DNA of 64,000 bases from Chiloscyllium plagiosum (Eukaryota), in the NCBI RefSeq assembly GCF_004010195.1, contig NC_057718.1:66535351-66599350 (forward strand). The letters are read 5' to 3'. Below are positions 1-62,919 of this stretch, in pieces. Numbering within the stretch: position 1 is the stretch's first letter; each line of letters begins with the position of its first letter. Both the position numbers and the translations under genes were made by a program. A model generated the notes under the pieces. It did not search any database. It was given only the letters and a program-made list of their open reading frames with translations, and was not told the DNA's origin.

Positions 1-1010
1 ATAGGAAACGGGTATAAGGAAAATCATCTCTCAACTCCTAACATTTAGTTCAGTTGGCTTTGATTCATAAATTTTTCAAATTGCATCTGCTACATTACTG
101 GGTATTCAGTAGAACACACACCTTTGTGATGCGCAAAAGGCTTGAATCCCAAGGGTGCTGTATACTCGGGTGTGGTGTGCATCTGTTACTTTGTCTACAC
201 AGCTCAGTGCATTTTATTCTTTGTCTATGAAGTACAGATCAGGACAGTGATAAACTGATGTGGATATTTAGAGGCTGGGGTCCAATTTTCACTCAGGTAT
301 TTATTTGAATTTTGGTGCAATTAAATCAATGGATTTCATGTATTAAAACAAATTAAATAAATTAATTTATCTTTTGTCTTAAGGAAAATCAAAGAACAGA
401 ATACAGTGGGGATTGGTGACTGCCAATCATCTAGGTTTTGACCCAGGAAATTTTAAGATTATCTTTATATTTTGTGTTTTTTATTAGTTTTAAAAACTGT
501 AAAATAATTGTAGTCCTAGAATTAAAGACCTTTTCATTGAGCAACGAGTTTTCAGTGAAATTAAACTGAGCTGATCCAAAGCAGAGTACATTTTTTGTTT
601 CTCTTCTCGTTTTCATCTTCTCAACTGAAGATGTTGGTTATTTAGTGATTGTACTAGATATGTGCATGTACTATTTTTGCATTAACTTAAATGAAGTAAT
701 TTGCAGAACAAAATTGATTGGAGTTGACTGAGATGTGCATCCCAGCTGCAGATCTTCAATTTCAGGAACATTTGGTTCTTTTCCCTTGAATTGACACTGA
801 CCTGGATCACCCCAGTTCACAAAGTCCAGATATCAACTCCCCCTACATTGAGTCCATTACATACCTTAAACCTTTTTTTGCAATTGGCATCAAATAATAC
901 ATTTCTTCTCTGTCATCCAATTCTACGGTATTTTAAAATGAGCTAATGCAGAACTAGAATATGAAATGGTGTAACTTAATAATTGATTCATTGATTTTGA
1001 TTCTCTCTAG

Positions 1011-1190
1011 AGTGCAGAACAGGTTTCAACATTCTGTCGTAGCTTACATGAGCTGCAATTATCTAATATGGATGGACAGAAGGAGAACATTGATCAAGAT
1101 CTAAGGCCATTAGCACGGCATCTCTCTGATGCAGAGAGACTTCGGAAAGTTATCCATGAACTCCTAGACACAGAGAAGTCCTATGTGAAG
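1011..1190 (+). CDS. TIAM2: TIAM2 coding exon (linker and start of DH domain)
   Basis: ttctctctag|AGT...AAG|gtatgc; encodes SAEQVSTFCRSLHELQLSNMDGQKENIDQDLRPLARHLSDAERLRKVIHELLDTEKSYVK, matching TIAM2 'LARHLSDADRLRKVIQELVDTEKSYVK'; 180 bp, phase 0/0. Confidence 0.96.
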
Positions 1191-2624
1191 GTATGCGTGA
1201 GGGTTAAATTGACGGCATTGATGTATTATGAATTAAATTTAAGCTTTAGAATATGAATTGCCTGTGCTTTGTGTCATCAAATAGATATTTATTGGTTTTC
1301 TTGAAATGTCTCCCTTTTATTCTTATGCCATTGTTGCTCAGGTATCATTCCACAGCCACTGATCCAACACCTCCACATTCAAGTTGATGTATGTATTATT
1401 TGTAGGCAACTGAACTGGATTCTGACTTGATCGAACTTTCAAGTATGCACTTTCTAGCAGGGTCCCTGGATAACAACCAGGAATGGAAATCATGACAATA
1501 ATTCAGGCCAATTGTATTGTCCCAGAGATACTCTGAGTGGGCAGAGACCTTTGCCTGAACCTTCTGGTCTACACTTCTTAGTCACTAAAGCATCAGGAAG
1601 TCTCAAATAAAAAATAATTACTCCCATCATAGCAAATGCTACAGCTGTTCCATGATGCCATAATTTAAAGTAATGGCTTTTAAGTAACTTTCTAAATATT
1701 AATTACATCTATTCTTTGTAATGACCTGACTTTGAAAGCTCCGATGTTAAGGGCAAAATATCCTATTTGTTGTTTCTTTTATTGCTGCTCAGACAAGCAT
1801 TTTAAGAGGAATAGAGTTATGATCTAATAGCATGTGATTGATGGCTCAAGAGACCTAAAAGTTGGTGCCTTGTATATAGATATTTACAAAACGAATTACA
1901 GTTTTAGATGACATTGACAGAAAGTATTAGAATACCACAGAACTTGATTATGTGCCTGATTTCCTGTTAAATTCATGATGTCTGCTCCATCACTCCAAAA
2001 GCGCAACTGAGGATTGAACAAGGCCTTGGGCAAAGGTCACTCAGCTGCATTTTTCAGTGGTGTATTTTGGAGTTATCAAAGTGAGTTGTTAAGAGCTGGA
2101 GAATATGTAGCAATTTACATTTTGGGCTCCTGATGTTAGAAAAAAACACTTACTGTTTATGATTATTTCAACTGAACCTACAGTGAAGGTTTGTTTTTCC
2201 TAGACCAACAACATCACTAAACACTAAGGATAGTAATCCACAGTCAGTCCATTCCGTTGTCTCTTTGAGATTATACTTTTGTGCTTAATTAGGATAGTTT
2301 CATGTTGTGGTAACTCAACATGCCAAATGTTTACATTTCATTTAAGCTATAATGGTCAAGTTATTTGGCCTAGAAAACTCCTAATATGAAAAATGGAAAG
2401 TGTTCATGCATTTTTATCTGGGAGTGCACCATCACGGACCAGAGAGAGAAAACCATCTGCTTGGTGGTCCTCTGATTTCTAGGCCAACTGATCACATTCC
2501 AATATAAATTTGGATTATTGAATTTGAATAAATTTGATTAATTCTGTTTGTTCTGGAATTTCGATTTCTTTGCACAGAGTACCAACTTCTTTGCAATTGA
2601 ATAGGTATATAGTTTACATATACA

Positions 2625-2760
2625 GAGAGGTGATAGTATGGATAGCATTACTGCCTCTGAGCCAAAAGCTCCAGATTCAAGTCCCATTGAAAACTCTGAT
2701 GGCCAAAGAAGCATTTACAATGCATCCAAAGAAATTGAGCATTAGACTGTAAAACTTTGT
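2625..2760 (+). mobile_element. degenerate tRNA-derived SINE head
   Basis: A-box-like start and B-box-like 'gattcaagtccc'. Confidence 0.35.
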
Positions 2761-2984
2761 TGGAAGAGGAGGAGCAGGATTGCTGCTCAGCCAAGAGATT
2801 TGAGTGTAGGCTGCTGTGTTTTGTGCCCCACCCAAAGTCCCTGGCCTCTTAAGTCTTGCCACTACTATAATGGAAAAGGGTCCTTTACCCACGCTTAATG
2901 TGATATTAGATCGTTTGCAAATGGAAATAAATCTTTGGAGGTCGGTTTGCATTGAGGAAGCTAATGTCGTTTTTTTAAATAAAG

Positions 2985-3135
2985 TGTTCATTTCTGGGTT
3001 GTGGATATTGCTAGCTGGGCCAGTATTTATTACCCATCGAGACTACCACTTAGCTCGAATTTCACAATCTTATGGTGGAGATTCAAATCCATGTCCCCAG
3101 AACATTCGCGTGGAATTCTGGGGTTCTAGTCCTCT
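2985..3135 (-). mobile_element. degenerate SINE, same family as 36225-36490 and 42760-43040
   Basis: shared motif 'gccagtatttattacccatc' / 'atttattgcccatccctaa' and tRNA-like end. Confidence 0.45.
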
Positions 3136-3509
3136 CTTGCTCTGTTGTTGCCAGTGCCATCTTCAGGTAATTTGCTCACTTTTTGTTACAAGCAAGCCAC
3201 AGGGCTAATTTTTCCTACATGCAGCATCAACCTGGGGAGGAAGTGGGTGGAGCAGAGAAAAAGTTCTCTTACCAATCACTCAATAAAGCAATCAATTGTT
3301 GAGGCCTATTCTTTCTTCCGTGTTGACTGTCAATCCATGATTTTTGCTGACCCTAACCCATTGAGCTTCCCTTTCCGGCCTCTGCAACAGGTCCTGCCCT
3401 CCTCTGCTAATCACCAAGCGTCCTCCTCTCCCACTTCTAACTTCCTGATTGGTCTGGCCTCCCATGATTTATCAACACATGTGCCTATTTTCTAGAGGAG
3501 CTCCATGAT

Positions 3510-4215
3510 GCTAGTAAAGTTTAATAAAGTTAGGTCGTATGGGATTCAGGGTGCATTTGCTGTTTGGATACGAAATTGACTTTGATAGGAGACAGAGGGT
3601 GGTGGTGGAGGGTTGTTTTTTGGACTGGAGGTTTGTGACCAGTGGTGTTCCACAGGGATAAGTACTGGGTCCACTGCTTTTTGTCATTTTATATAAATAA
3701 GTTTGGATGAGAATATAGAAGGCATGGTTAGTAAGTCTGCAGATGACACCAAAGTTTGGTGGCATGTTGGACAGTTAAGATGGTTATCTAAGATTACAAA
3801 GAGATCTTGATCAATTGGGTCAGTTGGCTGAGGAATGGCAGATGAAGTTTAATTTGAATAAACATGAGGTATTGCATTTTTGTAATACAAACAAGGGTAG
3901 GACTTACACAATTATTAGGGGACTGAGTAATGTTCAAGAAAGCAGAGACTTAGGGGTTCAGGTACATAATTCTTTGCAATTTAGGAGACATGTAGACTGG
4001 TTAAGGTATTTAACACACTTGCCTTCATTGCTGAAACCTTTAAGTAGAGAAGTTGGGATGGTCTGTTGAAGTTGTACAGGATGTTGATGAGGCCTTTTGT
4101 TAAGAACTGTGCACAGAATGGTCACCCTTGGATGTTGCCAGGAATGCAGTGTTTGAGGTATAAAAACAGACTGTAGAGGCTGGGACCTTTTTTTCACTGG
4201 AGCAGAGGAGATTGA
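3510..4215 (+). mobile_element. CR1 LINE RT fragment
   Basis: translates to SGVPQG*VLGPLLFV, SKSADDTK, EEWQMKFN and DLGVQVH with stops and frameshifts. Confidence 0.9.
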
Positions 4216-5360
4216 ACTCATGTACCTCTGGAGTACATCTAGGAAAAATTAACAAACAGTGAAATTCACAACTGATCTGGAGGAACCTGTGTGGTAGAGT
4301 TCACAACACAGGAACAGAAAAGTGTGTAGTTTTTCATGTGTACCTTGCTGCAAGTCTACAGTAGTGAGTAGAGTGGGTTCTTTCTTGATTATATGTTTTA
4401 TTGAAATCTGTCTCTTGATTAGATTTTAAACCATAAGCACTAAGTCAGATTTGGGCTGACAAGTAGCAGGTAAGAGTTGCACTACATTTAAGTGTCAGGC
4501 AATGACCATCTTCAATCAAGAGAAAATCTAACCATCACCCCTTCACGTTCAATGCCATCACCATAACTGAAATCCCCACTATCAACATCCTGGGAGGTTA
4601 CCATTGCCTAGTCGTATAATTACAGAGGTTACAAGAGCAAGTCAGAGACTAGGATCGTGAAGTGAATAACTTACTTTTGATTCCTCAAGGCCCGTCCGCC
4701 ATCTACAAGGCATAAGGCAGGTACGTGATGGAATATTCCACTTGCCTGGATGAATTTAGCTTCAGGGAGAAAGTGACAGTCTCAGATTCCTCCCTCCCCT
4801 TCCTCGACCTTTCTATTTCTATCTCAGGCGACAGAATCAACACGGACATCTACTACAAACCGACCGACACCCACAGCTACCTGGACTACACCTCCTCCCA
4901 CCCTGCCCCCTGTAAAAACGCCATCCCATTCTCCCAATTCCTTCGACTCCGCCGCATCTGCTCCCAGGAGGACCAGTTCAAAATACGTACAACACAGATG
5001 CCCTCCTTCTTCAAGGACCGCAATTTCCCCCCCGACATGGTCGACGATACTCTCCACCGCATCTCTTCCACTTCCCGATCCTCCGCCCTTGAACCCCGCC
5101 CCCCCAACCGCCACCAGGACAGAACCCCACTGGTCCTCACCTACCACCCCACCAATCTCCATGTACAGCGCATCATCCGCCGTCACTTCCGCCACCTCCA
5201 AACAGACCCCAGCACCAAGGATATATTTCCCTCCCCACCCCTATCAGCTTTCCGTAGAGACCACTCCCTCCGCGACTCCCTTGTCAGATCCACACCCCCC
5301 ACCGACCCAACCACCACTCCCGGCACCTTCCCTTGCAACCGCAGGAGGTGCAACACTTCC

Positions 5361-5371
5361 NNNNNNNNNNN
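5361..5371. other. assembly gap (11 N)
   Basis: run of N. Confidence 1.
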
Positions 5372-5437
5372 ATATCAAAGTTGAAACTTTATTGCTGGAA
5401 CAGCACAGCAGGTCAGGCAGCATCCAGGGAACAGGAG

Positions 5438-5473
5438 ATTCGACGTTTCGGGCACAGGCCCTTCTTCAGGAAT
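5438..5473 (-). ncRNA. minimal type I hammerhead ribozyme motif in a PLE terminal repeat
   Basis: minus strand AUUC-CUGAAGA-A-GGGC cugu GCCC-GAAA-C-GUC-GAAU: intact core, 4-bp helix I, 4-bp helix II, palindromic ACGU at helix III. Confidence 0.8.
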
Positions 5474-5745
5474 GAGCAGAGAGTGTTCAGCAGGAGAAGA
5501 TAAAAGGTAGGGAGGAGGGACTTGGGGGAGGGGCGTCGGAAATCCCCCTACCTTGTCTCAGTCAAATCCATCGAATTCAGCACCGCCTTCCTAACCTGAG
5601 ATCTTCTTCCCGACCTCTCCGCCCCCACCCCAGTCTGACCTATCACTCTCACCTTGACCTCTTTCCACCTATCACATTTCCGACGCCCCTCCCCCAAGTC
5701 CCTCCTCCCTACCTTTTATCTTAGCCTGCTGGACAAACTTTCCTC

Positions 5746-5781
5746 ATTCCTGAAGAAGGGCTTATGCCCGAAACGTTGATT
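5746..5781 (+). ncRNA. minimal hammerhead ribozyme motif (PLE)
   Basis: AUUC-CUGAAGA-A-GGGC uuau GCCC-GAAA-C-GUU-GAUU; GUU triplet, one helix I mismatch. Confidence 0.7.
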
Positions 5782-8700
5782 CTCCTGTTCCCTAGATGCT
5801 GCCTGACCTGCTGCGCTTTTCCAGCAACACATTTTCAGCTCTGAATTTAGCTTCAATAAAACTCAGCTTTACACCATTCAGGATAAAGCAGCCTATTTGA
5901 TTGGCACCACATCCACAAACATTTAATCCCTCCACTGCTAACAGTAAGTAGCACCAGTGTGTACCATCTGCAAGATGCACTGCAGAAATTCACCAAGGCT
6001 CCTTTGACAGCACCTTCCAAATGACTACCATTTAGAAGGACAAGAGCAACAGATACATAAGAACATGACCGTCTGCAAGTTCCTCTCCAAGTCACACTCA
6101 AGACTTAGAGCTTTATTGCTGTTCCTTCAATGTTTGTTGCTCCCTCCCAAATGTCATTGTGGGTGTACCTACACCAAATGAACTGCAGCAGTTCAAGAAT
6201 AAAACATGCCACCACCTTCGTAAGGGCATCTAGTGATCTTATTCATCCTGCAGGTAATTGATAGGAGCTCAATTTGTTTGGAGTGTTATGGTAGTGTCCT
6301 GTTATCTCATGTAATCTCATCTTAGATGTCTGCTTTATATTATCACTTTCCTGCAGATTCTGATTCCTTCATTTACCCATTGTATTTGAACAACTGAAGG
6401 CATTAGTTGAATGATCTAATAAGTTGGTCTTATTGGTCTTATAGGTTGTATCAGGTGCAGCTTTGGAACTGCATTGGTCTGAACAACATGCACATGATGT
6501 AAAAGTAATTGTGCTGACGGCCAAAGGCAGAAATATTCACTTGTCAGTGCTTGTCTGGTACTGACATAAGAGCTTCATAACTATCCAGCTGAACATTTTG
6601 AGGACTGAAGATGTCATTTAAGTCAGCAAATCTGGGCAGTTGATTTAATTTCATCAGGACATTGGGACAGCCCTCTTTATAAACCTTGAAGGGATTAAAA
6701 TAACTTACTCAATGGATTGTACTGATCTCTGTGGAGCTAACCTATAATAAGACTTGAAATCCCCCCCTCAGCTGCAAAACTCAATAACACAAGATTAAGC
6801 TGGACAGTATATTCTTTGCTGTTCACAAGCACTTGTTAGAATCTATATGTATCCTTAATAACCAAAGAGAGAGATTCTGAAATTGTTAAGTGTAAGCTTC
6901 ATTGGCTAAAGTGAAGCATTTCTTCAGTCTAGGATAATTCTGAATTACACTTTGACAACAGAAAGTCCACGATTTTGGAAATGTCAAGATGCAGTCCTCT
7001 ACTACTTGGCCCATGGTCTCCACAGCCATTAATTAGCTTCAGATAGAACTTGTTTGCCCTTTTAGGACAGCTAATTAAATGCCAGCAGCTTTCGTGACCA
7101 CTGCTGCCTTCAAGCAATCCCACAGACAAGTGAATCGGGTTTCAAGATCTTGGGTCTCTCCAAGGCAAGGCTGGGGTGAGGCAGTTAGGTGTCTGAGGTA
7201 AACAGGGCAGGGACAGGAAACCCAAGGTGGGATGATCGTAGTGGGTGTACAGTCCTCCAATAGGCACGGGCCTATAAAGGAGATGCTCCACCTTTACTAG
7301 ACACTACCCAAGCAACGAAAGCCGCCAAGGCAAACGCACTTGATCAGGGGCCTCTTTTGTTGCTGTGCCAGGTAGCAAGTATGTCTTCTGCTGCTGATAA
7401 AATTCCAAGGCTTGCCAATACTCCCCACAGAAGGCTGTAAAATCCAGATTAATATTTTCAACCATAATGTGCAAACAGCACACCTCCTGCAGGTTACCAT
7501 TTAAATCGAATATGTCGGTTTGATACAGTAAAATATGTACAGAGACAATGTCTCAAAAGCAGCACAATCAAGCTGCATCTATGTTGGATTTCAGATCTTG
7601 CCAGGTTTCCAGTCGGGTTGGATACTTCTTCAGTACTGTGTTGGGTGCAGTTGAGGGCTGCTTGGGCCACAGAAAAAGAAAGGCATAGGGAGCTGATGAC
7701 TTATCAACACACTATTAGTCTAATGCAGCACCTAATAAAAGATGAGTAATTGTTTCACTCTTAATAATTAAAAAATCATTGTATGGCAGCTTAAAAGAAG
7801 TCAAGTTTTCAGATCGCAAGATTTGAGACACCGTACCTGTATTCTTAAAATGGTTTTCCTGCATTCATTTATTTAGGCATAAACAATTTAACAGAACAAA
7901 CTTCTGTTTTAACCAGCATCTTATGAACTGTCACTCTTGTTAAACCAGCAAAAATTATATACCTCAAATACCATGAAGTTGACTATTGTTCTGTCCAATG
8001 GTTAAATTTTTCAAATTTATTTATGTCACTAAATATAAACAGTTGATTCAATTTTGAGTCGATGTTTCCTCAAATAATTGTAATCTACCATGATTTCTGA
8101 GTAGTCACTTGAGGGGGCAAGTGAGAAGGCTCTCTGCTGGTAAGTTTTATTTAAGACAAAGTTGCATTATTATTTGTGATTTATGCTGTAAATAAAGTAC
8201 ACACCATCATGGTTATAGCCCCTGCATTACGTTTCTATTACTTAGTGTGTGTTTTCACATTGGTTATGTGGACCTCTTGATTATCTGGTATATTTAATAA
8301 TCAACACACTCCTGGTCCCATAAGATAATAAAAACTTTACTGTAGTGAGTACAACATTAAAAGGGTCAGGATAATCATAATGAACAACAAGTACATAAAT
8401 GGCTGTATGAAAAAACAATATAAAATCAATGCTGATCACCAAACAAGTGGAAAAGAAAGTAATGCAATTAATTGGGATAATAGTGACCAAGTCCCAAGAT
8501 AGCCTGCTGTCAGTCTCATAGTGAATTTTATATCAGGTAGAGCTTCATATTGTTTGGTTTACGTGACACAAAATTTGAATGTGACATGAAAGTTGGAAAT
8601 ATATAGATATTCTTCTCCTGAATACTTGTTTTGAGCTCCTGAAACAATGATTAAATCCCATAAATTTCAAAATTGACTGCTGCGAGATTTAAAGGTAAGA

Positions 8701-9117
8701 AAAGAAGGATTTTATATGTCAAATCTGTGGATATCATATATAAGATAAAGGTTAAGGAGACCACTATTCATTGATGCAGATAAGTAGGAATAAAGCAGAC
8801 CAGTGAGTCACACTTGAAATAAATTACACTGATCTCTGAGCCTTCTCCAGCTACTTGATCAAATATTGCTTCAAAACCATGGAACTGAATTGAGGTATAT
8901 TCAGCAAAGTTGGCATGATGAATAATATGACTGTCGAGCTAATTTGGCTATTCAAATGCCAATGTTCCAAAACACAGTGCAAACATAGGTTAGTCTGGGA
9001 ATCCATCCCTTCATCTGGAAAAAAAAATTGACAATCATTAAAAGAAAGCACATTTAATTAGATAGCTAGCTTCCAGCAACACTTGGAAAGTCCACTTGTC
9101 TGAATCATAACCTGACT

Positions 9118-9295
9118 ACATAAGAACATGGGAAATAGGATCAGGAGTAGGCCATCTGGCCCTACAAGCCTGTTCCACGCTTTAATAAAATCATGGCTGA
9201 TCTTTTTGTGGCTTCAGCTCCACTTACCTATTCTCTCACCATAACCCTTAATTCCTTTATTGTTCAAAAAACTGTCTATCTTAGCTTTAAAAACT
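9118..9295 (-). mobile_element. CR1 3' end fragment
   Basis: acataagaacatgggaaataggatcaggagtaggcc..., the reverse complement of the CR1 3' UTR seen at about 16850-16910. Confidence 0.75.
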
Positions 9296-11199
9296 GATTG
9301 TATAGTTTTGATATCACTTGTGAAGCCCTCCAGTGAAATGAAGAAGGGGAATCTAAGATCCAACTTGAGTAACTGCCACTAACAATGTCTAAAGCATGTA
9401 GAATAAAATTGAAAAGGCTGAACTCGAACAGTTACTGTAGAACCACACATTAACATTATCCATCAAAACATTCAAACAGTCTCCATCTACATTTCCTGCA
9501 AACTGTCAGTTTCTCCTGCTAATAATCTTTCAATTTAAAACTTAATGAGAGAGGCTGATTCTTCCTAGTTCAGTTCATGAATAGTTCTTTTAGGTCTACT
9601 TCCTGCTAATCAGTTTGTGATTATATTGGACTGGTTAATCATCAACCACACCAGGCATTTTTATGCCCATCACCTCTCCTTATATCAGAAGTCCTCAGAC
9701 AGTGGATTTTTCAAAACATCTGGGCATATTATAAGGCTGAATTCTGATTGTAGAGTTCAAACTGTAATTATAAATTGCTTGTTTATTCTTTTGGTTTGAG
9801 TTCTACATCCCACAATAAGATCAACAACTTGAAACGATGCATTGCGATTCATTATTTTGTTACTATGCTCAGCTGTATAGTTTTTTCGATATTGCAACTC
9901 TATGGTTTGTTTCACTGTTAGTTTCTTTGTTTCTAAATATTTTAATCTTTTATTTTTCTTCTTTGCTTTATATTTTGTACACCTCTGGTTGCATTTTCTT
10001 GCGGTATTCTTTCAATTTTTCTTATCATTTGCTTATTGCCTCTTTTGATTCTTAAATTAACTATCTTTCTTTCACTGTCCTTCTCTCATATTTCAATGTA
10101 CAGAGGCATCATATTCATTTCTCTCAAAATTCAGTAATCTGTGCCTAATTTGTTTTTCACTCGGTCCCTCACAGCAAGATTTTCCTTCCCCTGTGATTCA
10201 TCACCATGACTACCTTCTGCTCTCCAGGTCTCTGAACTTCAAATCATTGCCTGAGATTTTAAACGAGGACTCTTAGGAAAAGAACCCAATATAATTAACA
10301 TATGTGCATTCATTGCTCTGCCACCTTCCTACCCATCACGCAAAAAAAAAATTGCTGTAGAACTACCCTTTTATTTTCACCTCGTGCAGGGGTTTTCTCC
10401 ATACCAGTTGCTTTAGAAATTTGTGTTTGGGTTGATCTGTCCTCAAATTTTCATTGCTTCCCTCAGTGTAATATTCACTTCCTCCAGTTACCAGCCTGGC
10501 AAGGAACTGACCATTGATGAAGCAATTGAGTGAATGTGGAAGTTTCTAATTGCTCCATTGGGCAATGTGCAAATGTAGTAACACAGAAAAGTCATGCTAT
10601 TCTTTTTGATATAAATTATTGCATGCATACTTAGAACAAATGAGTGTTTTAATAATTGTAGTTATCTGTTTTAAGGAAGTTCACTTATTGTGCTCACAAA
10701 GTGATGAATGTTCATGTTGGACTTCAAGCATCATGTCTTAATATCAGGCTGTACACGTAAATCACTCAGATGTGGAGTATAGCTTCCTCTGCTCAACAGA
10801 GTAAATCATCTCCAACTTCAGCAGAGCATTACTGCTGTAGTAGTATGGAATTTTTAGAATTTTCCAAGGCAGTCATTCTATACCTCAAGTGAGATTGACA
10901 AATTAGTATATCTTTTGAGTTTGTGGCTAATTCCATATAAGACCATTGCAGTCAGCAGTCAAAGGGGTCTAATACCCCAGCAATCTAATCTGGGTTGAAT
11001 CTACTGAACTAGGTTATAATTTTCCTTAATTCTGCAGAGCAATCCTTAAGACCACCTTGATGTCAGTTGAAAAATATCAAATCCAAAGAAAATTGGAAAT
11101 GCCTTAGCTTTTAGTTTACATCAACTTCTCAGATTTCTAGATGCTCAAGAATTTTAATAAAATATATTTGCTAATTACCATGACATGTTTAAATTTTCT

Positions 11200-12990
11200 A
11201 GCAAATGGGAGCAGGAGTAGGCCATTAGCCCTTTGAGCCTGTTCTACCATTCATTATGATCATGACCTGATTATCCAACTCCATAGTCTGCCTCTGTTTT
11301 TCCCCTTATCTTTGATTCCTTTTGGTCCAAGTGCTATATCCAATCCTCCTCAAAATCATGCAATGTATCGGCCTCGACTGCTTTCTGTGAGAGTGCATTC
11401 CACAGGTTTACCACCTTCTGGGTGAAGAGATTTCTCCTCATCTCAGTAGTAAATTGTTTACCTCTATCCTTAGACTGTGACGCCTGATTCTGGACTCATC
11501 GGAACATCCTTCCTGCATGTTGACTGTCTATACCTCTTTAAAATTTGAAAGGTTTCTATGAGATGGTTTCCTCCTCCTCCTCCTCCTCCTCCTCCTCCTC
11601 CACACCCCCATTCTTGAACTAAACCAATAACCTGTCCTCATTGACCAGTCCTGCCCTCCCAAGAATCATGTGGTCGACCTTTGCTGCATTCCCACCATAG
11701 CCAGAACACCACCACCCTTTCTTTTCCCCCCCCAACCTCCCTCAGGCTCAGATAAGGAGACCAAACTTCTCTCAATATTCCAGGTGTAGTCTCACTAAGG
11801 CCCTATGACACTGCAGGAAAACAGCTTTGTTCCTGTACTTAAATCTCACTCTGAAGGCTAACAAACCATTTGCTTTCTTGACGGCCTGCTGCAACTGCTT
11901 ACTTTCAGTGGCTGGTGGTACAAGGACAGCCAGGTCTCTCTATCTGTCTTCCTTTCTGTTTTGGTTGCAAAGTGGGTAACCACATTTATCAATGCTACAC
12001 TGCATTTGCCATGCATTTTCACACTGAAGCCTCTCTGCATTGTCCTCGGAGCTCATCCCCTCCACCCAGCTTTGTGTTATCTACAAAGTTGAACATATTG
12101 TATTTCGTTCCCTCATCTAAGACATTATGTATTGTGTATAACTGGGTTCCTAGTATTGATCTTTACCCCCCGTGTCACTGTCTGCTATTTTGAAAATGAT
12201 CTATTTATTCCTACTCTGTTTGTTTCTTGTCTGTGAACCAGTTTTCTATCCATTTCAATCCCATGTGCTTTAATTTAACATGCTAATCTCTTGAATGGGA
12301 CTGTTGAAAGTCTTCTGAAATTCCAAATAAAAGAGATTCACTTGTTCCTCCTTATCAACACTGTGTGTTACATCTTCTAATTTCAGCAGACTTATTAAGC
12401 ATAAGTTTCCTTTTGTAACTCCATGCTGACACTGGCACTGTTTTCTAAGTGCTCAGTTATTAAATAATTTGAGATGGATTTTGGCATTCTCCCCCAGTAC
12501 TAACATCTGGTCTATAATTATTGTTTTCTTTTCTCCCTCCCTTACATTAGGAGTTACATTAGCTACCCTCTAATCTGTAGGAATTGTTCCAGATTCTATA
12601 GAATCTTTGTAGATAGCCACCAATGCATTCTCTATTTCTAGGTCCACTTCCTAAGTACTCTGAGATTAGTTGATCAGGTTTTGGAGATTTATCTGCTTTC
12701 AATCCCATCAATTTTCCCAAAACTATGTACCTACTAATACTGATTTCCTTCAGTTCTTTTCTCACTAAATTGCATTTCTCAACATTTATTCTGTTATTTT
12801 TGTCCCCCTTTTGTGAACAAAGAACCAAAGGATGTAGTTGGTGGTTCAGGCATTTCTTTGTTGCCCACTATAAATTCCCTGTTCTGACTGGAAAGGACCA
12901 TAATTTGTCTTCACCAATTTTATTTCTCTTTATATACCTATAAAAACTTTTAGTCTGACTGTTTCCCACAAACTTACTCTCATACTGTTT
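11200..12990 (-). mobile_element. degenerate CR1 LINE
   Basis: 3' UTR motif at 11205; ORF 12559..12828 has VLGKLMGLKADKSPKPD. Confidence 0.85.
11569..11601. repeat. (TCC)11 microsatellite
   Basis: direct reading. Confidence 0.95.
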
Positions 12991-13784
12991 TCCCTTAATG
13001 AATTTGAATGGCTGTTTTGATAATTTCCTGTTGTCATTTCTTTTCTTTTACTGCATACCTAAGCCAAGGATGTTGTTTGAGAAAGGAACTATTTCAGGGT
13101 CTCCATACTTAGCACAGGGAAATGCAAATAAAGCCTCTTCTACCATATCCTAACAATATGCCTTGCTTCAAACTTCATTTGAGTGCAACAGCTATATCAA
13201 TATCATCCTTGTACCATATCCTACACTGATCATCCTGTCCTGCCTTTGAGAAAGATCATCAATTAGGGATACTACTGTGTGGGGAGACCCATGCCCCTGA
13301 GAAATGTGACTAATACTGTCTAATCATATCTGACATAAGATCATCACATTTAGAGGACTTTTGTCCCTTTTACTGAACTCCAGTATCCTTCAAGCATATT
13401 TATTTTAGGATGCAGATCAGATGATAATGTCTTTGAAAATTTCAAGGTTTCAATGACTGAATTACATTAAAGCCAGCTTAATTTTGTTTTTAGTTGCAAT
13501 TAATTGCTTGTTGTGGATCTATTTTATAGAATTCTTTTAGATTTTCATCAACTGAGGAAATGCTTAATTGCTGATGTCTTCGAAAGAAACTGTGAATTTT
13601 CAGGTTTAGGAACAAACAGTAGATAAAATAATCCCAGAGCGTGTTCAGATGTTTAAAAGGATTGATGAAGTGAAGTACTAAGTAATGGTAGAATGCTTGA
13701 ATATAATACAAAAGTACTTAAAATGTTTTAAGATGAATGAAGGTTTCATAATTTTTGGATGATTTATGGTTGTATCTTTTATAG

Positions 13785-13853
13785 GATCTGAATTGTCTGT
13801 TTGAAGTATACCTGGATCCCCTACAAAATGAGACTTTCTTAACACAGGATGAG
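13785..13853 (+). CDS. TIAM2: TIAM2 coding exon (DH)
   Basis: ttttatag|GAT...GAG|gtatga; DLNCLFEVYLDPLQNETFLTQDE; 69 bp; too short for the ORF track, found by reading. Confidence 0.95.
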
Positions 13854-32904: not shown

Positions 32905-33130
32905 CTTCACCCTCCCCACCAACCTATCACAATTACCTTTTACCTCCCACCTGAATCCACCTATCACCATCCCACCTATCTTTCCCACTTAGCCCCACCC
33001 CACCCCCCATTTATCTCCTTCCCCCTCCACATTCTTGATGAAGGCCTTATGCCCAAGACATCGACTCTCCTGCTCCTCGGATGCTGCCTGACCAGCTGTG
33101 CTTTTCTAGCGCCATACGTTTTGACTCTTA
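32905..33130 (+). mobile_element. PLE terminal repeat with decayed hammerhead
   Basis: ttcttgatgaaggccttatgcccaagacatcgactctcctgctcctcggatgctgcctgacc, homologous to 5746-5830. Confidence 0.8.
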
Positions 33131-33221: not shown

Positions 33222-34395
33222 CACCTTTCCTTCCCCAGCATCTCCATTTCAATTTCTGGGGATAGGCCGACCACTGATATCCACTACAAACACACCAACT
33301 ACCAGTTTCTCTGTCTCTGTTATGTCTGGTCTGACAATATCACTTTCCACAGGGTAGGGCCTCCAGAAATGTCCACCTTTTTCCTCAACTGAGGATTCCC
33401 CACCACTGAAGTTGATAGGTCAGCCATGTTTGATCCATTTCCCACACTTTGGCTCTCACCCCTTTTCCCTTCCCACAACAGTGATAGCGTTGCTCAATCC
33501 TCACTCCCCACCTCACCAGATCCACAAAGGAACGTAAGCCACTAATTCCGCCACCTCCAGCAAGATGTCACCATCAGACATGTATTCTCTTTCCCTCCCT
33601 TTCAGCCTTCCTCAGGGGACTGGTCTCTCCAGGACACTGATCAATGCCTCCCTAAGGCAGCTTCCCATGCAATCACAGAAGATACAGCACTTTTCACTCA
33701 CTATCCAAGTCTCCATACACACCTTCCAGGTGAAGCTGCAAGCTACCTGCATTTCATTCAATTTAGTCTACTGCATTTATTGCTTACACGTGGTCCCCTA
33801 TACATTGGGTGACGAAATGCAGCCTGGGCAACTGCTTTGCAGATCGCCAATGTTCTATTCGCAGAAATTATGCCGAGCTTTCAGTTGTCTGCCTGTTCAA
33901 CACAGCACCTTGCTGCCTGGCCGGCATTTCTGTATCAGGCTGCCTTCAGTCATCCACTAAGACCCGATGCAAGGTGGATGAAAAACATCTCATTTTATGC
34001 TTGCGGATCCTAAAGCTTTCAGCTCAATATTGCATTCAGTAATTTTAGAGACTGAACACTACCACCTCTGACCTTTGACCCACCCTCAAACCCCCAGGCT
34101 CTGTCATGGCATGGGCTGCTTTCAGCAGAGTCAACCCACTTCCACTTACTTATGGTCCATGTTACCAGCTGCTTTTCTTCTCTTGCTTACTGTTAACCAT
34201 CTGTTTACCTGATTTTTTTTTCTCTCTCTGGGCTCCATCTCTACCCACCCACTCTCTCCTCCTCTCCCCAGCACCACCACCATGCCCCACCTTGTGCGGG
34301 CTGCTATCAGTTCTGAAGAAAGGTCACTGGTCTAGAAACATTAGCTCTACTTTCTCTCTGCAGATGCTGCCAGGCTCCTGAGTTTCTCCTCTAAT
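33222..34395 (+). mobile_element. older decayed Neptune-type PLE (RT thumb, GIY-YIG, pLTR)
   Basis: ISISGDRPTTDIHYK; NLVYCIYC..YIG; terminal ttctgaagaaaggtcactggtctagaaacatt...gcagatgctgcc. Confidence 0.82.
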
Positions 34396-36894: not shown

Positions 36895-37420
36895 ATGATA
36901 TGGAGGTGCCGGTGTTGGACTGGGATGGATGATGTTAGAAATCACACAACACCAGGTTATAGTCCAACAGGTTTATTTGGAAGCACTAGCTTTCGGAGCG
37001 CTGTTTCTTCATCAGGTGGCTGTGGAATATAAGATCATAAGACACAGAATTTATAGCAATAGATTACAGTGTCATACAGTGATATATTGAACAGTCTTGT
37101 TAAGTCTTTCATCTTTTAGACTGGTGTGCTGGTTTTGGTTCTTTAATATGTAAATCCCAGAATTTCTCTTCAGTCACATTCTCAAGATAACTTAAGGTTT
37201 TAAAACAAAAGGTGACACCTCAGCTCAGATAATGCCTTAAAGGTGTGAGGTTAGAGCCTGCATCCCAATCATAAGTCAGACTGGTTCTATTTCCAAAGTG
37301 GAATTTACAAAATGTTACACGGATTGACTGCCTGCAGGTTCTGCATATTTGAGCAAAATAGAATGTATCTGCAAATATAATTCTGAAAATACAAATTTAC
37401 CTATAAACTTATGCATGCGT
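36895..37420 (-). mobile_element. second PLE family terminal repeat with hammerhead motif (36984-37018)
   Basis: minus strand CAC-CUGAUGA-A-gaaac agc gcucc-GAAA-G-CUA-GUG; homologous to both arms of 55241-55570. Confidence 0.72.
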
Positions 37421-43150: not shown

Positions 43151-46100
43151 GGGAGAACCATGATGGCGGCAACCCAGAAAGTCTGAGTCTGTAGTGCTCT
43201 GTCCAAGACTCAGGCAAAGTGGGCTGCCCACCTCCACCACACCTGCCAAACCATTCAAAGTAACTTTTATTTAATACAGTTAGTCATTTTGCATCAAACC
43301 TGAGTAATTTGGTGCTTTGTTAAAATGACAGGCAGGAACCTCTCCCCCCACCCCCTCCCCAGCTGCAGCAGAGATGTCCGCCCCAGGGGACTTACCTACG
43401 GTGGCTAGTCTTGTTGTGTTATTACTAAGCTGGAAGAGAAAATCGACGTCTTCATAGAAGAGTCCAGAAGTAGGTGGGAATCGCTCTCGGTCGCACTGCA
43501 AAAGCACGACCGAAATATTGAAAAAAATCAAACATAGAATTGGAGGGGGCAGAGCTAAAGGCCCCGACCTCTGAGGTTGCTGCAGAATTAGCTGTGTTGG
43601 ATCCAGACTCTCGAACAGCGAGTCCGGGCCTTAGAAGATCACATCCACCTCGAGAATCGGGGCCGTCAAAAAAATATTTGTTTGCTGGGCCTTCCCGAAC
43701 GGTAAGAGGAAGGCCAGCTTGCAGTGTTTTTGGAGCAATGGCTCCCTCAGATGTTGAAGCTGGAGGCTGAATCAGGCCAGGTGCGGGTAGAATGAGCCCA
43801 CCGGGTTGCAATACGCAGGCCCGGGTCAGGCCAGCGCCCCCGCCCGGTCCTGTTCCGGCTTCAATGTTACAGAGAGAAGCAAAGCTCCTGGAAGCCTCCG
43901 GAACCCTCTGGAAAGATCCCCAGGCCATGACATATAAAGGATCTAGGGTTATGCTGTTTCAGGATTTTTCCCCAGCTTTGGTCTGCAAGAGGAGGGCGTT
44001 TGATGAAATGAAGAAGCGTCTAAGGGACTTAAACATCCAGTACTCCTTGCGCTACCCAGCGATGCTGCGTTTTGACCACGAAGGATCTGTCTATAACTTT
44101 GGATCGCCGAAGAAGGCCAAGGAATTTTTGGACTCTCTTAAATAGATTGTAAGAATTAATCCGTGTGGTTAATGATACTGTAGGGGAGTACTCATTCTCA
44201 TTTGGAAGAATCTCCCTTTCAAAACCTTAAGTCAGATAAAAGAAGAATCTGGACGGTACATACTGATTAAAGCCCTTATAAATGGAGAGGAATATGGATT
44301 TTGAATCTTTATTGTTCCCCGGCACATCCTTTCAAATTTATAATGGAAGCATTCTCCAAACTGATGGTTCTCGGGGCTCATTACACAGTTATAGGAGGAG
44401 ATTTTAATTGCGGTATGGATTCGGAGATAGACAGGATACCCAGCAGTACTGCCGGTATATCCCCCAGATCCAGGCAATTGGCGGATTTGAATAAAGAGCT
44501 AGGATTGGTAGATGTGTGGAGGTGCCTCCACCCGAGTGTCACACCAGAATTGATATGTTTTTTGCCCCCTCTACCTTTTTGAATTCCATATTATCCTGCA
44601 AAATAAGTAATATAATTTCCGATCACACTGCAGTGTATATGGAAATCCAAGACTAGGAACAACGAGATGCCCCCCCCCCCGACATTGGCGTATGGATTCT
44701 TTCTTAATAAAGGATAGTAAATTCGTAAAATATTTCTCTCAAGAATTCAAAACTTTTTTTTGGAAATTAATTCAGGTAAGGCTAGTAACTCGTCGATGAT
44801 GTGGGAGACCATTAAGGCTTATGCGCGGGGTCTGATCATTTCATACTCGGCGATCCAGAAAAAACATAAGGGAGAACAACAGCGTCTACTCGAGGCTCGC
44901 TTAAAGGCAGCTGAGACAGTGTACGTTGATAGGCCCTCTGTTGCTAAATTACAAAGGATTACGGCCCTTAGGATAGTCCTGAATACCACGCTTATCCAAA
45001 CAGCAAAGATTAATGAATATGGCGATAAGCCTGGTAGATACCTAGCGTTTCTCGCAAGGAAAAAAAAGGCCCCTCAAGTATCACGCCCATCAGGGAAAGT
45101 GTTGGTACTCTGACTCACAATCATAAAAGGATCAACACATTCTTTAGAAAGTTTTATTTTGATTTGTACAAATCGCAGGATTGTGAAGATAGAGCCAGGA
45201 AGATGGAGTCCTTTTTTAAAAGCCTGGCCTTTCTGGATTTAACCCCGGAACAGGTGTCGGTCCTGAATGCTCCCCTTACAACCCAGGAAGTACTTGATGC
45301 AATCAGGCAGCTTCAGAGTAGTAAAGCACCTGGTCCAGATGGATTTCAGCTTGAATTCTACCAAGAGTTTACAGGAGTATTAGCTGGTCCACTTCTGGAC
45401 ATGTACAACTACTCATATAGTCAAGGCTGTCTCCCGCAAATATTTCTCTCATTTTCAAAAAAGGAAAGGACCCAGAAGATTGCACATCATACAGACCAAT
45501 ATCTTTGCTAAATGTAGATTTTAAAATTCTTTCTAAAACATTAGCATTGAGGCTAGAGAGGGTATTGCCATATATCATATTAGAGGACCAGACTGGGTTT
45601 ATCAAGGGCTGTAGACCATCTAATAATATTAGAATGGTTTTGAATGTGATTAAGTCTGTCATCAGGAAAGAATACCAGGAATAGTAGTCTCATTGGACAC
45701 TGAAAAGGCATTTGACAGGGTTGAATGATCATACCTGTTCTATAGACTGGAAAGGTTTAGCGTTGGAAAGGTATTTGCTAAATGGGTCTCAATATTGTAT
45801 AATGACCCCAAAGCAGCCATGATCACCAATGGTTTAGGCTCGGATAGCTTCAGTGTGGGTAGGGGCTGCCGTCAGGGATGTCATCTCTCTCCATTACTAT
45901 TCACACTAATAATTGAGCCATTAGCAGAAGCTATACGGGCTGATTCTAATATAACGGCCCTGGGGGTTGGCACGGGTAAACATAAAATTACCCTTTATGC
46001 AGATGATGTTCTCCATTTTCTTAGTAATCCTTTGATGTCCGTGCCCCACCTGATCAAAGTTTTAATTTATTTAGTGCATTCTCAGGTTACAAAATTAACT

Positions 46101-48047
46101 TATCAAAATCGGAGGCCATGCCGATGGGTGGTCTCGCTAGTATGTCCCACTTATTGGATAGATCTCATTTTCCTATTCGGTGACCTCTGGAGGGTTTTTT
46201 ATATTTAGGTATTTTTATCACCCCAGTATTTGGCCAGCTGTACAAGGTCAATTTTGTGCATTTACTGGAAAGGATAAGGCCGGACCTTCAACGTTGGGGG
46301 GATCTTTCAATTTCTTGGCTAGGTAGAATAGCTCTAATTAAAATGAATGTCTTGCTCTGTCCCTTATCCCCTATGAGAATGCTCCCAGTGATGCTGCCAA
46401 GGTCGGCGTTGCTCAGATTATATGGTTGGCTTGGTTCTTTCATCTGGAATCATAGACGGCCCCTCATTAAGTTAAAGAAGCTACAGCTTCCACATGCAAG
46501 GGGAGGGCTGGATTTTCCAGACTTTAGGAAGTATCAGCTGAGTTCTCTATTAAGCTACATAGCCGATTGGGTCTCGTCTGACCTGCAATCAATCTGGCTG
46601 GACATCGAGGCTTCTCAAGCAAAGTGACCGCTTATAAAAATAAGATGAAAGTCATTATGGACCATTGTAAAAATCCTATAGTATTAAACACAATTAAAGC
46701 CTGGAAGATGATGCGGCAAAAAGAGGGTAATTCACATAAAACCTCCCCTTATACTCCTATAGTAGGGGCATGGGGTTTTCAACCCGGGCTCTCAGATGCC
46801 ACATTTAAATCCTGGAGGTACAGGGGGTATCCTCCTGTTTAGAGGGTCTGTTTGATGAGGGGGTATGATGTCTTTTGGACAGCTGCACCAGAAATTTGGA
46901 CTACCTAATGGAGACCCCTTTTGATACTTCCAAATTCGAGATTACATACAGAAGAAGACTACGTTATTAGATAGCCTTTATAAATCAGATAGGGAATGAA
47001 AAGTGTTGTGGCCAATGGGTTTACCCTCGGTCAGCACTCTCTACCATTTATTACATAATGAAGTTTCGGAAGATATGGAACGATTGCTTAGAACATGGGA
47101 TCAGGAATTGGGGTTGGAAATATCCACAGAAATATGGGACGACATCTGGGAAAATGACAGAAAAATCTCCACCTGTAATAGAACCCATGTCATTCAATTA
47201 AAGATACTCCATAGGATTCATATAGCACCGGAACAATTGGCAAAATTTAGGGCAGGAGCATCTCCAATGTGTCCCAAATGTAAAATAGAGGTGGGCACTC
47301 TCACACACTGCTTGTGGACATGTCATAAGATCTGCAAATACTGGGTCAGAGTAGCAAATGCTTTGATAGAAATCTTGGGAGCGGCAATTAGAGTAAATCC
47401 AGTATCTCTTTTCCTGGGCTTTTCGAGTTTGCCTTCCCTGGATGTGCACGGGAGGAAATTATTCTCCATTCTCCCATATTGTGCAAAAAGAATATCTAAG
47501 TAAACTGGGTAGCTGAGGGCCCTCCAGGACTTTCGAATTGGTATAGGTTGGTCATGGAATGTATTCCCCTTGACTTTCTTACAAATATGATGCACCAAAA
47601 AACTGAATTATTCTATAAAATATGGCAGCCCTTCCTGAATTATATAGATAGATATTTCGGTCATTCTGTCAAGGGCTTTCATCTAGCTGTGGTAGCGGTT
47701 CTGGCTGGTCCGGGGGCCTTTGGGGGAGGAATCCCGCATGAATACGGGATTTATCACGACTTGATGTGAATTCGTTCCGAGCATGTACTTCACAATTTAA
47801 TTACTATGTTATCTTTATTTTCTCTTGAGTAATGTAAGATATTTTATTATATGCTCTTTTTAGTTATAGGTTAAATTAGTGGTTAGTTGAGTTTTGTTTT
47901 GTTTTGTTTTTCTTCTTTATCTCTTTTTGTTATTAAGTTTTGGTTATTATTTATTTAATATTTAATTGTATATTAATGTTTGTATTTATGTGTATTATTT
48001 TGTAAGTTTGTAAAAACATGTTAAATTTTCAATAAAAATATCTTAAA
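43151..48047 (+). mobile_element. 5'-intact decayed L1-clade LINE (ORF1 and ORF2)
   Basis: ORF1 LENRGRQKNI.L.GLPE and FQDFSPAL..KRRAF..YSLRYPA; EN VIGGDFN, LVDVWR, SDH; RT KAPGPDGF, GCRQGCHLSPLLF, LYADD; CPKC..H..W.C; T-rich 3' UTR; AATAAA at 48031; TSD aaaatgcaggttg (43138-43150) / aaaatgcagatta (48048-48060). Confidence 0.95.
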
Positions 48048-50140: not shown

Positions 50141-50460
50141 TATCTTTTGAAATTTTAAAAAATATAATCCTAGTGCCCTATTTACATCCGTACAGTTCTG
50201 TGAAGCATTTCATGGATTTGGTTTGTTTTTGCATACTTTTTTTCCTTAAACAATGATTTGTTAGTCGCCAGTAAGATATAGTTATGGATCAAGACTGCTT
50301 TGTTCCTCTGATCTATGATAGTGGAACACAAGGAATGTCATCGGAAGTAACAAACATCGGTAGTAGTGGATTGATGAAGTAGTATGTGAAGGCAGTCAGT
50401 TTGGCTTTTGTATACTGTTTGCCTACATAGTTGTCAGTTTCATGATAAAAGGTAATGGTA

Positions 50461-50564
50461 GCTGAAAATGTGTTGCTGGAAAAGCGCAGCAGGTCAGGCA
50501 GCATCCAAGGAGCAGGAGAATCAACGTTTCAGGCATGAGCCCTTCTGCAGCCCTCACTTTCTCC
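50461..50564. mobile_element. 104-bp inverted PLE-terminal insertion, 14-15 bp TSD
   Basis: taaaaggtaatggta at 50446-50460 and 50565-50579; minus pLTR arm joined to plus tail 'tgcagccctcactttctcc'. Confidence 0.9.
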
Positions 50565-56314: not shown

Positions 56315-56744
56315 GTAAGAAAACCAGTGCTTAGATTTCACTGTCACAAAAGCTAAATTCATTTGGAATTATGTAATCTAATTTTTCTTCGATCAATATT
56401 TTATTTATAAATGTCATTTAATAGATTGTCAAGGCTTTATATGTGAGAGAATGACATCTGTTTGTAGGATGGTATATTCAATTAACTTTTAATCATCTTT
56501 CTAGCTTTTCTTGATCCTCCTTGTCCTAATTCATTTTATCCTGTCATCTCCCTTCAAAATAGGGACTGAGTTTGCACATTAGTAATTTATACTCTGTAAT
56601 AAAACCAGTTTTTAAAAAAAGTGCAGGATGAAACCCTGGAAGAATTTCACATGAACCCCAAGTTATATGCAGACTTAAAACAAATTACAAACTAGATTGT
56701 AATAGTTAAAACTGTTTAATATTGTGATTTGTTCTTTTCTTCAG

Positions 56745-57367
56745 CATCAACACGAGCATCAAAGTTGTTCAAACATTCTCCATCTTATTGGAGTCAGGAC
56801 TCTGGGAGGAGTAATGCTGTTGATTCTGACGAATGTAGCCTGAGCAGTGGAACACACAGCAGTGGCTGCCATACCTCGGAGAGTGGACTGGAGCACAGTA
56901 GTCTTTCGTATCCAAAGCAAGAACACAGTAGTGCAGAGGAACAACAGGAAGATGAAGTAAAAGAATCAGACATTTTGAGTGATGCTGAAGATTGCTGCAA
57001 ATCAAAGGATGAGACTTTGGCAAATGAAATCAAAGAACAATTTGAAAAATTGCAAATTGATGTTGATAAAGTGGATGTAGAGCAGGCATCAAACAATAAC
57101 CATCTGGATACAGAAGAGGTGGAACAAACAGATGGTCACCCCAGGCTTGTGCGAGGCCACTTCTGTCCAATCAAAAGAAAAAGTACCAGTACAAAGAAAA
57201 AAAAAGGAAGTCTGTTGCCCATGCACAAGCACAACCGATCTCTAGATAGTCAATCTGATGGGCCAAATGTTGACTTGAATTCTGTTTTGGAGAGAGAGTT
57301 TAGTGTCCAGAGCCTAACTTCTGTAGTTAATGAAGACTGCTTCTATGAAAACATTGAAAGTAACTGA
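56745..57367 (+). CDS. TIAM2: TIAM2 last coding exon (C-terminal tail)
   Basis: ttcttcag|CA TCA...TGA; TIAM2-type motifs KESDILSD, PRLVRGHFCPIKRK and DLNSVLEREFSVQSLTSVVNEDCFYE; within ORF 56729..57367. Confidence 0.97.
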
Positions 57368-59836: not shown

Positions 59837-60148
<312 letters not shown>

Positions 60149-62106: not shown

Positions 62107-62304
62107 GCTGAAAATGTGTTGCTGGAAAAGCGCAGCAGGTCAGGCAGCATCCAAGGAACAGGAGAATCGACGATTCGGGCATAAGCCCTTCCTGAAGAAG
62201 GGCTTATGCCCGAAATGTCGATTCTCCTGTTCCTTGGATGCTGCCTGACCTGCTGCGCATTTTCAGCTTTGATCTCCAGCATCTGCAGCCCTCACTTTCT
62301 CCTC
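62107..62304. mobile_element. 198-bp palindromic PLE-terminal insertion, 14-bp TSD, hammerhead core at its centre
   Basis: taagcttgcaagga at 62093-62106 and 62305-62318; CTGAAGA at 62192-62198, GGGC-ttat-GCCC, GAAA at 62212-62215, GTC. Confidence 0.92.
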
Positions 62305-62544
62305 TAAGCTTGCAAGGAACATACGACTTGAGTAAAAACATTCCTGTTGATATGTAAAGAGAAAAAGATGGGAAACTAATATGGGGGATTTACATTCAGA
62401 AATGGGGGATTTAATAATAAAAGGGGGAATGAAGAAATGGCTAACAAACTAAATTTGTACTTCTATCTTCACAAAGGAAGACATGAATAATGTACCATAA
62501 ATGTTAGGGAACACAACTTAGCTGAGGGGGAGGAACTGAAGCAA

Positions 62545-62670
62545 CTAGGAGAAAGTGAGGACTGCAGATGCTGAAGATCAGAGCTTAAAAAGAAGGGCTT
62601 ATGCCCGAAACGTCGATTCTCCTTCTTGGATGCTGCCTGACCTGCTGCGCTTTTCCAGCAACACATTTTT
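62545..62670. mobile_element. 126-bp inverted PLE-terminal insertion, 14-bp TSD
   Basis: aggaactgaagcaa at 62531-62544 and 62671-62684. Confidence 0.92.
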
Positions 62671-62919
62671 AGGAACTGAAGCAAATCTATATTACAGAAA
62701 TGACATTGGAGAATTTGATGGGATTGAAGGCTAATGAATTCCCAGGGCCTGATAATCTACATCTCAGAGTATTTAAGTGGCCCTAGAAATAGTGGATGCA
62801 TCGGTAGTCAACTTCCAAAATTCTTGACTCAAACAGTTCCTGCAGATTAGACCTTAAGACACAAGAGCAAAAATTAGGCCATTTGACCCATCAAATCTGC
62901 TCTACCACGCAATCATAGT

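Follow-up and report, generated by a model that had tools for sequence, protein, structure and literature searches.

Does a hammerhead motif lying in an intron of the shark Chiloscyllium plagiosum cut the transcript of its host gene? The window (the whole stretch of 64,000 nucleotides analysed here, contig NC_057718.1, positions 66,535,351 to 66,599,350) carries two such motifs on opposite strands between positions 5438 and 5781, and a first-pass annotation had proposed that sense-strand copies are transcribed in the TIAM2 pre-mRNA and could cleave it if they dimerise. We are highly confident that both are minimal hammerheads from the terminal repeats of a truncated Penelope-like element (PLE) inserted in an intron of a TIAM-family gene. 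They are very likely inert at this site, since a fold-back of 170 bp is predicted to hold the single sense copy against the other arm.

The host gene was identified from its exons. The exon 1009-1190 (+) matches the start of the DH domain of the TIAM1 structure 1FOE (E value of 1.2e-4) and is also contained in spliced contigs. The DH exon after it begins at 13785, and more exons lie beyond on the + strand (located with short motifs). The intron between them is the following:

1191..13784, + strand: 12.6-kb intron of the TIAM-family host gene, separating its first two DH-domain exons, with GT at 1191 and AG at 13783-13784.

The last exon of TFB1M is found at 59840-60148 (-). The TIAM-family gene was labelled TIAM2 because of this proximity and of human synteny, in which TFB1M is the neighbour of TIAM2. 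A long open frame at 56720-57364 (+) is likely the last exon of TIAM2, the two genes being arranged tail to tail about 2.5 kb apart. Since the TIAM-family gene is read on the + strand, its pre-mRNA contains the weaker motif only, the perfect one being antisense. The two motifs are:

5438..5473, - strand: minimal hammerhead of subfamily B with a perfect helix I, antisense to the TIAM-family gene, predicted cut between 5442 and 5441.

5746..5781, + strand: minimal hammerhead of subfamily A with a U.U mismatch in helix I, sense to the TIAM-family gene, C17 changed to U at a CpG.

Both motifs read as the annotation described them, with the core, the 4-bp stems on the minus strand, and the loop uuau and GUU triplet on the plus strand. 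The minus motif (5473-5438) is composed of a helix I AUUC/GAAU of 4 bp, CUGAAGA, an extra A, the hairpin GGGC-cugu-GCCC, GAAA and CGUC. In the two copies, the CUGANGA, GAAA and NUH core elements follow each other in type I order, the palindrome ACGU replaces helix III, and helix II is closed by G10.1-C11.1 with an unpaired base after A9, two traits also found in five families of the genome. The short helix I comprises 4/4 pairs in the minus copy and 3/4 pairs in the plus copy (AUUC/GAUU), where the U.U mismatch, which the annotation had not mentioned, is common to the whole subfamily. The core, helix II and the palindrome are intact in the sense copy. At position 5777, the window has a U where 375 of 427 family RNA reads have a C, a CpG change that creates the GUU triplet; since GUU is native in two other families, this triplet alone does not disable the sense copy. 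Folded with RNAfold, the minus 36-mer adopts the hammerhead as its MFE structure (-7.1 kcal/mol), and the MFE structure of the plus 36-mer contains helix II only. Neither isolated fold is better than those of shuffled sequences (z of -0.81 for the minus and -1.48 for the plus 36-mer), and a search of the whole window against Rfam at gathering thresholds gave 0 matches. The motifs are considered real on account of their repetition and covariation, and not of their folding energy.

The repetition was evaluated on the whole genome (3.56 Gb). The pattern combining core and helix II gives 110,558 exact matches and its reversed control 0; the pattern restricted to the core gives 171,859 and its control 721, which represents one motif per 21 kb. 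The minus 36-mer itself is present in 8,512 exact copies. Because these counts far exceed those of the reversed controls, the motifs of the window are not chance occurrences. The 62 core-only matches collected in 1.4 Mb from 13 other genes fall into five families. Between families, the first pair of helix I is C-G, A-U or U-A, pairs 2-3 of helix II change on both sides, the palindrome is ACGU or AGCU, and two of the five have a native GUU. When the window was added to the 13-gene sample, 64/65 motifs were palindromic, 63/65 had a paired helix II and 57/65 had the first two positions of helix I paired; these matches are copies of few families, not independent events, and the evidence lies in the five families. 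The covariation of the stems that the annotation had asked for is therefore found as compensatory changes between the five families, that is at the level of the master elements. One family, with an 18-nt helix II region and a native GUU, occurs mostly as opposite-strand pairs (8/12 matches; L093:1318-1659, L104:570-737, L131:4668-5586, L147:39-426).

These traits are those of a known class. PLE minimal hammerheads are defined in the accessible text of PMC4209133 by the same core, an unpaired base between 9 and 10.1, G10.1-C11.1, a palindromic 15.2-16.2, a short helix I and no helix III. The extra base after A9, which the annotation had noticed, is in the accessible part of that paper a standard trait of PLE hammerheads. 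The motifs described there are also mostly solo truncated copies, and opposite-strand pairs 100-700 bp apart are read as debris of truncated PLEs. Two differences were observed with the accessible data of that source: helix II is of 4 bp in the shark versus 7-8 bp in Schistosoma, and the shark count is about 19 times the highest one there (4,000 copies in coelacanth, 9,000 in Xenopus), obtained with a different search. No shark is mentioned in the accessible text of PMC4209133 or in its supplement file 2, and no paper on shark PLE hammerheads was found in a search of mostly open-access literature, outside Repbase.

The two motifs belong to one PLE insertion (4765-5841), as expected from the annotation, which had related them to the terminal repeats of PLEs carrying minimal type I hammerheads with a palindrome; they sit on a PLE ORF fragment and match the published definition. 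The insertion is organized as follows:

4751..4764, + strand: left target-site duplication of 14 nt, identical to 5842-5855.

4765..5360, + strand: 5'-truncated PLE ORF fragment in an open frame, comprising the end of the RT, the thumb and the linker up to the CX2-5CXXC finger.

5361..5371, no strand: assembly gap of 11 N.

5372..5543, - strand: inverted pLTR piece and tail of subfamily B, about 98% to B copies, beginning at ATT, with AATAAA at 5393-5388.

5544..5841, + strand: end of the ORF followed by the pLTR and a short tail, of subfamily A (96.7% to an A copy, against about 85% to B copies).

5842..5855, + strand: right target-site duplication.

The host site of the insertion is an older repeat whose two flanks are close together in 2 other loci, and a DNA contig (sequencing run X1) spans 4467-4804, across the left junction. 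The ORF fragment encodes 198 residues and reaches 98.1% to other genomic copies. No Pfam family was detected with this 198-residue fragment; in the longer copies, the three scanned (3/3) display RVT_1 above the cutoff and GIY-YIG just below it (E value of about 3e-4), the window holding a fragment only. The linker of the shark element contains the CX2-5CXXC finger (CNRRRCNTC in the copy L054) and the DKG motif is also present. The finger marks the Neptune and Nematis PLEs in the accessible text of Craig et al. 2021 (PMC8557442), and the sequence features agree with an EN+ Penelope-like element having a linker finger of Neptune/Nematis type. Other likenesses with these PLEs, as far as that text goes, are the order RT then GIY-YIG, the 5' truncation, an inverted copy, an optional tail of about 30 nt and trouble in assembly. 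The shark element differs in that its inverted piece lies inside the insertion and belongs to another subfamily. No pLTR-ORF-pLTR tandem was seen in 25 loci: among the loci retaining the front part of the ORF, 0/25 had a hammerhead joined to the ORF and all 25 were 5'-truncated.

The distance between a linker probe and the hammerhead is 593-613 nt in uninterrupted copies and the element of the window has its hammerhead at the same place, in the pLTR. Compared with the longer element, about 386 nt of endonuclease sequence are absent at the gap 5361..5371 or hidden in it. In many other copies (L032-L050), 200-440 nt separate the linker from the hammerhead, against 593, and no gap intervenes; the endonuclease part is often deleted or collapsed. 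As the two arms come from different subfamilies, a B stub was likely inserted into an A copy or joined to it by template switching. The inner arrangement is compatible with a nested insertion, a template switch or a mis-join at the gap. If the last one applied, the true locus would be a single A-type element with one hammerhead; the inverted arm does adjoin the N gap, the subfamilies of the arms differ, and the copy L052 breaks at the same three letters ahead of a gap. We nevertheless regard such a mis-join as improbable, the joint 5543/5544 having a short AT-rich overlap that resembles other junctions of the family and inverted arms being frequent in it (41/75 stubs examined). No contig among those listed spans the 5543/5544 joint.

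The tail of subfamily B deserves a separate observation. In 26 single-cell reads, a loose end resembling poly(A) lies about 10 nt after the AATAAA that this tail carries (region 5393-5379 of the window, minus), and B copies may act as polyadenylation sites, which at this locus would be antisense to TIAM2. The AATAAA-bearing B tails found in introns are 4 in sense and 9 in antisense orientation (p = 0.27), too few copies for a conclusion.

The inverted piece places the two motifs in facing arms:

5375..5844, + strand: inverted repeat with 169-nt arms, 89% complementary, and a 132-nt spacer; predicted fold-back burying both motifs.

The + transcript is predicted to fold into one long duplex of about 170 bp (-302 kcal/mol, z of -24 against shuffles). 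The MFE is -308.5 kcal/mol versus -263.1 kcal/mol when the sense core is forced open, so that about 45 kcal/mol would be needed to free the core, and the bases of the sense core are predicted to pair with the other motif with a mean probability of 0.94; these values come from equilibrium folding of the assembly as given, where the gap beside the inverted arm may hide sequence or a mis-join. A dimer would also require a partner. The motif at 5746 is the only sense match with a paired core in the window, where no second intact same-strand partner was found, and one more match, with a broken helix I, is located within 60 kb upstream.

Orientation and spacing of the family were examined in 14 gene intervals (1,456,200 bases), the direction of the genes being taken from the strands of Pfam exons and not from an annotation. 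Of 214 family copies, 101 are sense and 113 antisense. The intact ones number 23 in sense and 15 in antisense (p = 0.26), showing no sense depletion (n = 38, with a LINE control equally devoid of bias). The sense/antisense counts of the remaining classes are 7/19, 45/44, 17/18 and 9/17; the first of these, with core intact and stem broken, has an antisense skew (p = 0.029, uncorrected, one of five classes) for which we offer no explanation. In the same intervals, the LINE control gave 80 sense against 88 antisense fragments, so the orientation test is deprived of a working positive control and has limited weight. This absence of antisense bias among CR1-like LINE fragments (1.46 Mb) is an observation in itself, unlike mammalian L1, which shows an intronic antisense bias. 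An inverted family copy is present within 300 nt of 14/36 intact copies, and an intact same-strand neighbour under 1 kb in 4/36.

In the RNA run X21, 1,455 family reads were found, 91% of which come from other loci and none of which lies on the unique flank of the insertion; the run X22 gave 0 matching reads. The accumulation of RNA 5' ends that the annotation had suggested looking for at the motifs was not seen in the family reads, where no position gathers the starts or the ends of many molecules; these reads are shallow, 3'-biased single-cell data and not specific to the locus.

Once inserted, the copies lose their catalytic bases at a neutral rate. Among copies long enough to be scored, the non-CpG sites of the core are changed in 34/946 cases versus 61/1517 for invariant sites of the tail (p = 0.67), and G12, which belongs to a CpG, is changed in 21/95 cases versus 97/475 for the other CpG sites (p = 0.68). 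The extra conservation of the core across genomic copies that the annotation had asked for was not seen in this sample. Selection would keep the motif only in active master elements, the pasted copies drifting. In the master elements, the target of the motif would be the RNA of the element itself, cleaved by a dimer or with the aid of the element's protein.

The cleavage of the TIAM2 pre-mRNA by the sense copy is not supported. Against it stand the predicted duplex, the mismatch of helix I, the lack of an intact cis partner in the window, the neutral decay, the absence of sense depletion, and the behaviour of published PLE minimal hammerheads, which show no cleavage as monomers and a weak one as dimers, and in one case require the protein of the element. 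In its fuller form, this idea would have the sense copy cut through a trans dimer with another PLE transcript, or with a PLE protein, thereby tuning splicing or termination. The intact core, helix II and palindrome speak for it, as do the transcription of the PLE family somewhere in the genome (the 1,455 reads) and the palindrome-centred dimer of the isolated sense 36-mer, favourable in silico (-21.5 kcal/mol); a PLE protein can moreover switch on a PLE hammerhead, according to the accessible text of PMC11167929. The antisense arm, however, is transcribed first and is predicted to pair with the sense motif, and the points raised above (helix I, cis partner, neutral decay, undepleted intact sense copies and, from weak data, RNA ends with no accumulation) apply equally, so that we judge such cleavage of the TIAM2 pre-mRNA highly improbable. 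Another possibility is that the insertion acts on the pre-mRNA through its long double-stranded hairpin alone, by A-to-I editing or slowed splicing, catalysis having no role. Long intronic duplexes undergo editing, the 170-bp duplex is predicted with a z of -24, and head-to-head pairs are common in the family (the 14/36 intact copies mentioned above). The insertion is nevertheless distant from the flanking exons (4.2 kb and 7.9 kb), no RNA read that could show editing falls on the unique flank, and the duplex hinges on the joint beside the assembly gap; we consider it unlikely that this is how the insertion acts. The preferred reading remains that of a likely inert PLE fragment, and the locus shows no sign of acting on TIAM2.

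Two other classes of hammerheads were considered and rejected. RECK-type intronic hammerheads are single-copy, conserved at an orthologous site and provided with a full helix III with loop contacts. A domesticated intronic hammerhead of this amniote type is discarded here by the young high-copy repeat, the absence of helix III and the neutral decay. Non-LTR retrozymes share with the shark motifs the type I hammerhead, the high copy number and the link with PLEs, in the accessible parts of PMC7229834 (up to 120,000 retrozymes in axolotl) and of bioRxiv 10.64898/2026.07.22.740005 (retrozymes in one chondrichthyan). They are described there as head-to-tail tandems with demonstrated self-cleavage, whereas at the locus the two motifs stand in opposite orientation on an ORF fragment and no tandem array was found, and an intact same-strand neighbour under 1 kb accompanies only the few intact copies counted above. 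The shortage of retrozymes in Xenopus introns, given in the accessible text of the same preprint, is mild evidence that tandem active forms can be harmful there. For PLE minimal hammerheads, no monomer cleavage and a low dimer cleavage are reported in the accessible part of PMC4209133.

The 5' ends of the copies raise the question of what the ribozyme does for the element itself. Of the 214 copies, 75 begin at -10 to -1 of CUGA, 4 at -20 to -11 and 7 at +25 to +33, around the cut site; older subfamilies with another upstream sequence could inflate the main cluster. That the stubs begin at the cut site was rejected on these counts (7/214). Besides the 41 of the 75 stubs with an inverted arm, 17 of the other 34 have a target-site duplication of at least 9 nt (22/400 in the control). 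The 3' ends of family copies cluster near +76 to +97 and +121 to +129. Genome-wide, a 16-mer occurs in 66,081 copies, of which 48,338 keep the upstream C of the element and 17,743 do not; a G replaces this C in 57 of the first 100 among the matches listed (hand count), against 27 expected. Examined for a cap-templated G, the stubs flanked by target-site duplications have a single extra G in 1/17 cases; the G lies within the duplication in 5/9, and of the 23 cases with a G, 12 belong to inverted arms.

Since the stubs contain an uncut site, their templates were uncleaved RNA, as in the PAc Poseidon element of Anolis (Frangieh et al. 2024, PMC11167929). In the accessible text of that study, cleavage is assisted by a protein, the RNA used for insertion is uncut, the tail is defined by RT starts at internal positions, cutting at ATT is preferred and no RNA ends lie at the cut site. 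The shark family resembles PAc, to the extent of that text, in having about 100 nt after the hammerhead, tails with two end points, a template of uncleaved RNA, ATT at the junctions and no RNA ends at the cut site. It differs by its clade, and by the ORF of PAc starting inside the hammerhead, the 5' end of the shark element having not been recovered in 25 loci.

On this basis we propose, quite tentatively and with low confidence, that the first base of helix I is the transcription start of the element. The RT would start 85-130 nt downstream and run off the uncut 5' end, yielding tens of thousands of stubs made of a hammerhead and a tail. The ribozyme would in that case act as a switch by which the element's RNA loses its capped first 32 nt, and not as a tool for cutting tandems or host introns. 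The sequence TC-A-TTCC at the beginning of helix I fits the initiator consensus. A cluster of 5' ends due to endonuclease cutting or to microhomology at ATT explains the data as well. No paper on the 5' junction at helix I of PLE hammerheads was found in a search of mostly open-access literature. This sharp junction makes the purpose of the PLE hammerhead testable.

Other repeats are scattered in the window. Decayed copies of the same PLE family, and one of the AGCU family, are located in other TIAM2 introns at 33031-33123 (+), 50460-50550 (-), 34313-34338 (+) and 36991-37019 (-). The last intron of TFB1M contains two more stubs (62110-62310 and 62550-62672): one is a head-to-head palindromic pair and the other has a rearranged core and an apparent flanking duplication. 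Further PLE-like pieces on the minus strand (62950-63770) and a broken L1-like element with ORF1-like, endonuclease and RT frames (43500-47800, +) were recognized by eye in the ORF list.

The motif is of a known kind, the PLE minimal hammerhead, and the locus is one of about 170,000 similar motifs. With one motif per 21 kb, the density in this shark is far above the counts given in the accessible parts of the papers compared. Thousands of sense-strand intronic copies appear to be tolerated, an argument for PLE minimal hammerheads being inactive by default except within the RNA-protein complex of the element itself.
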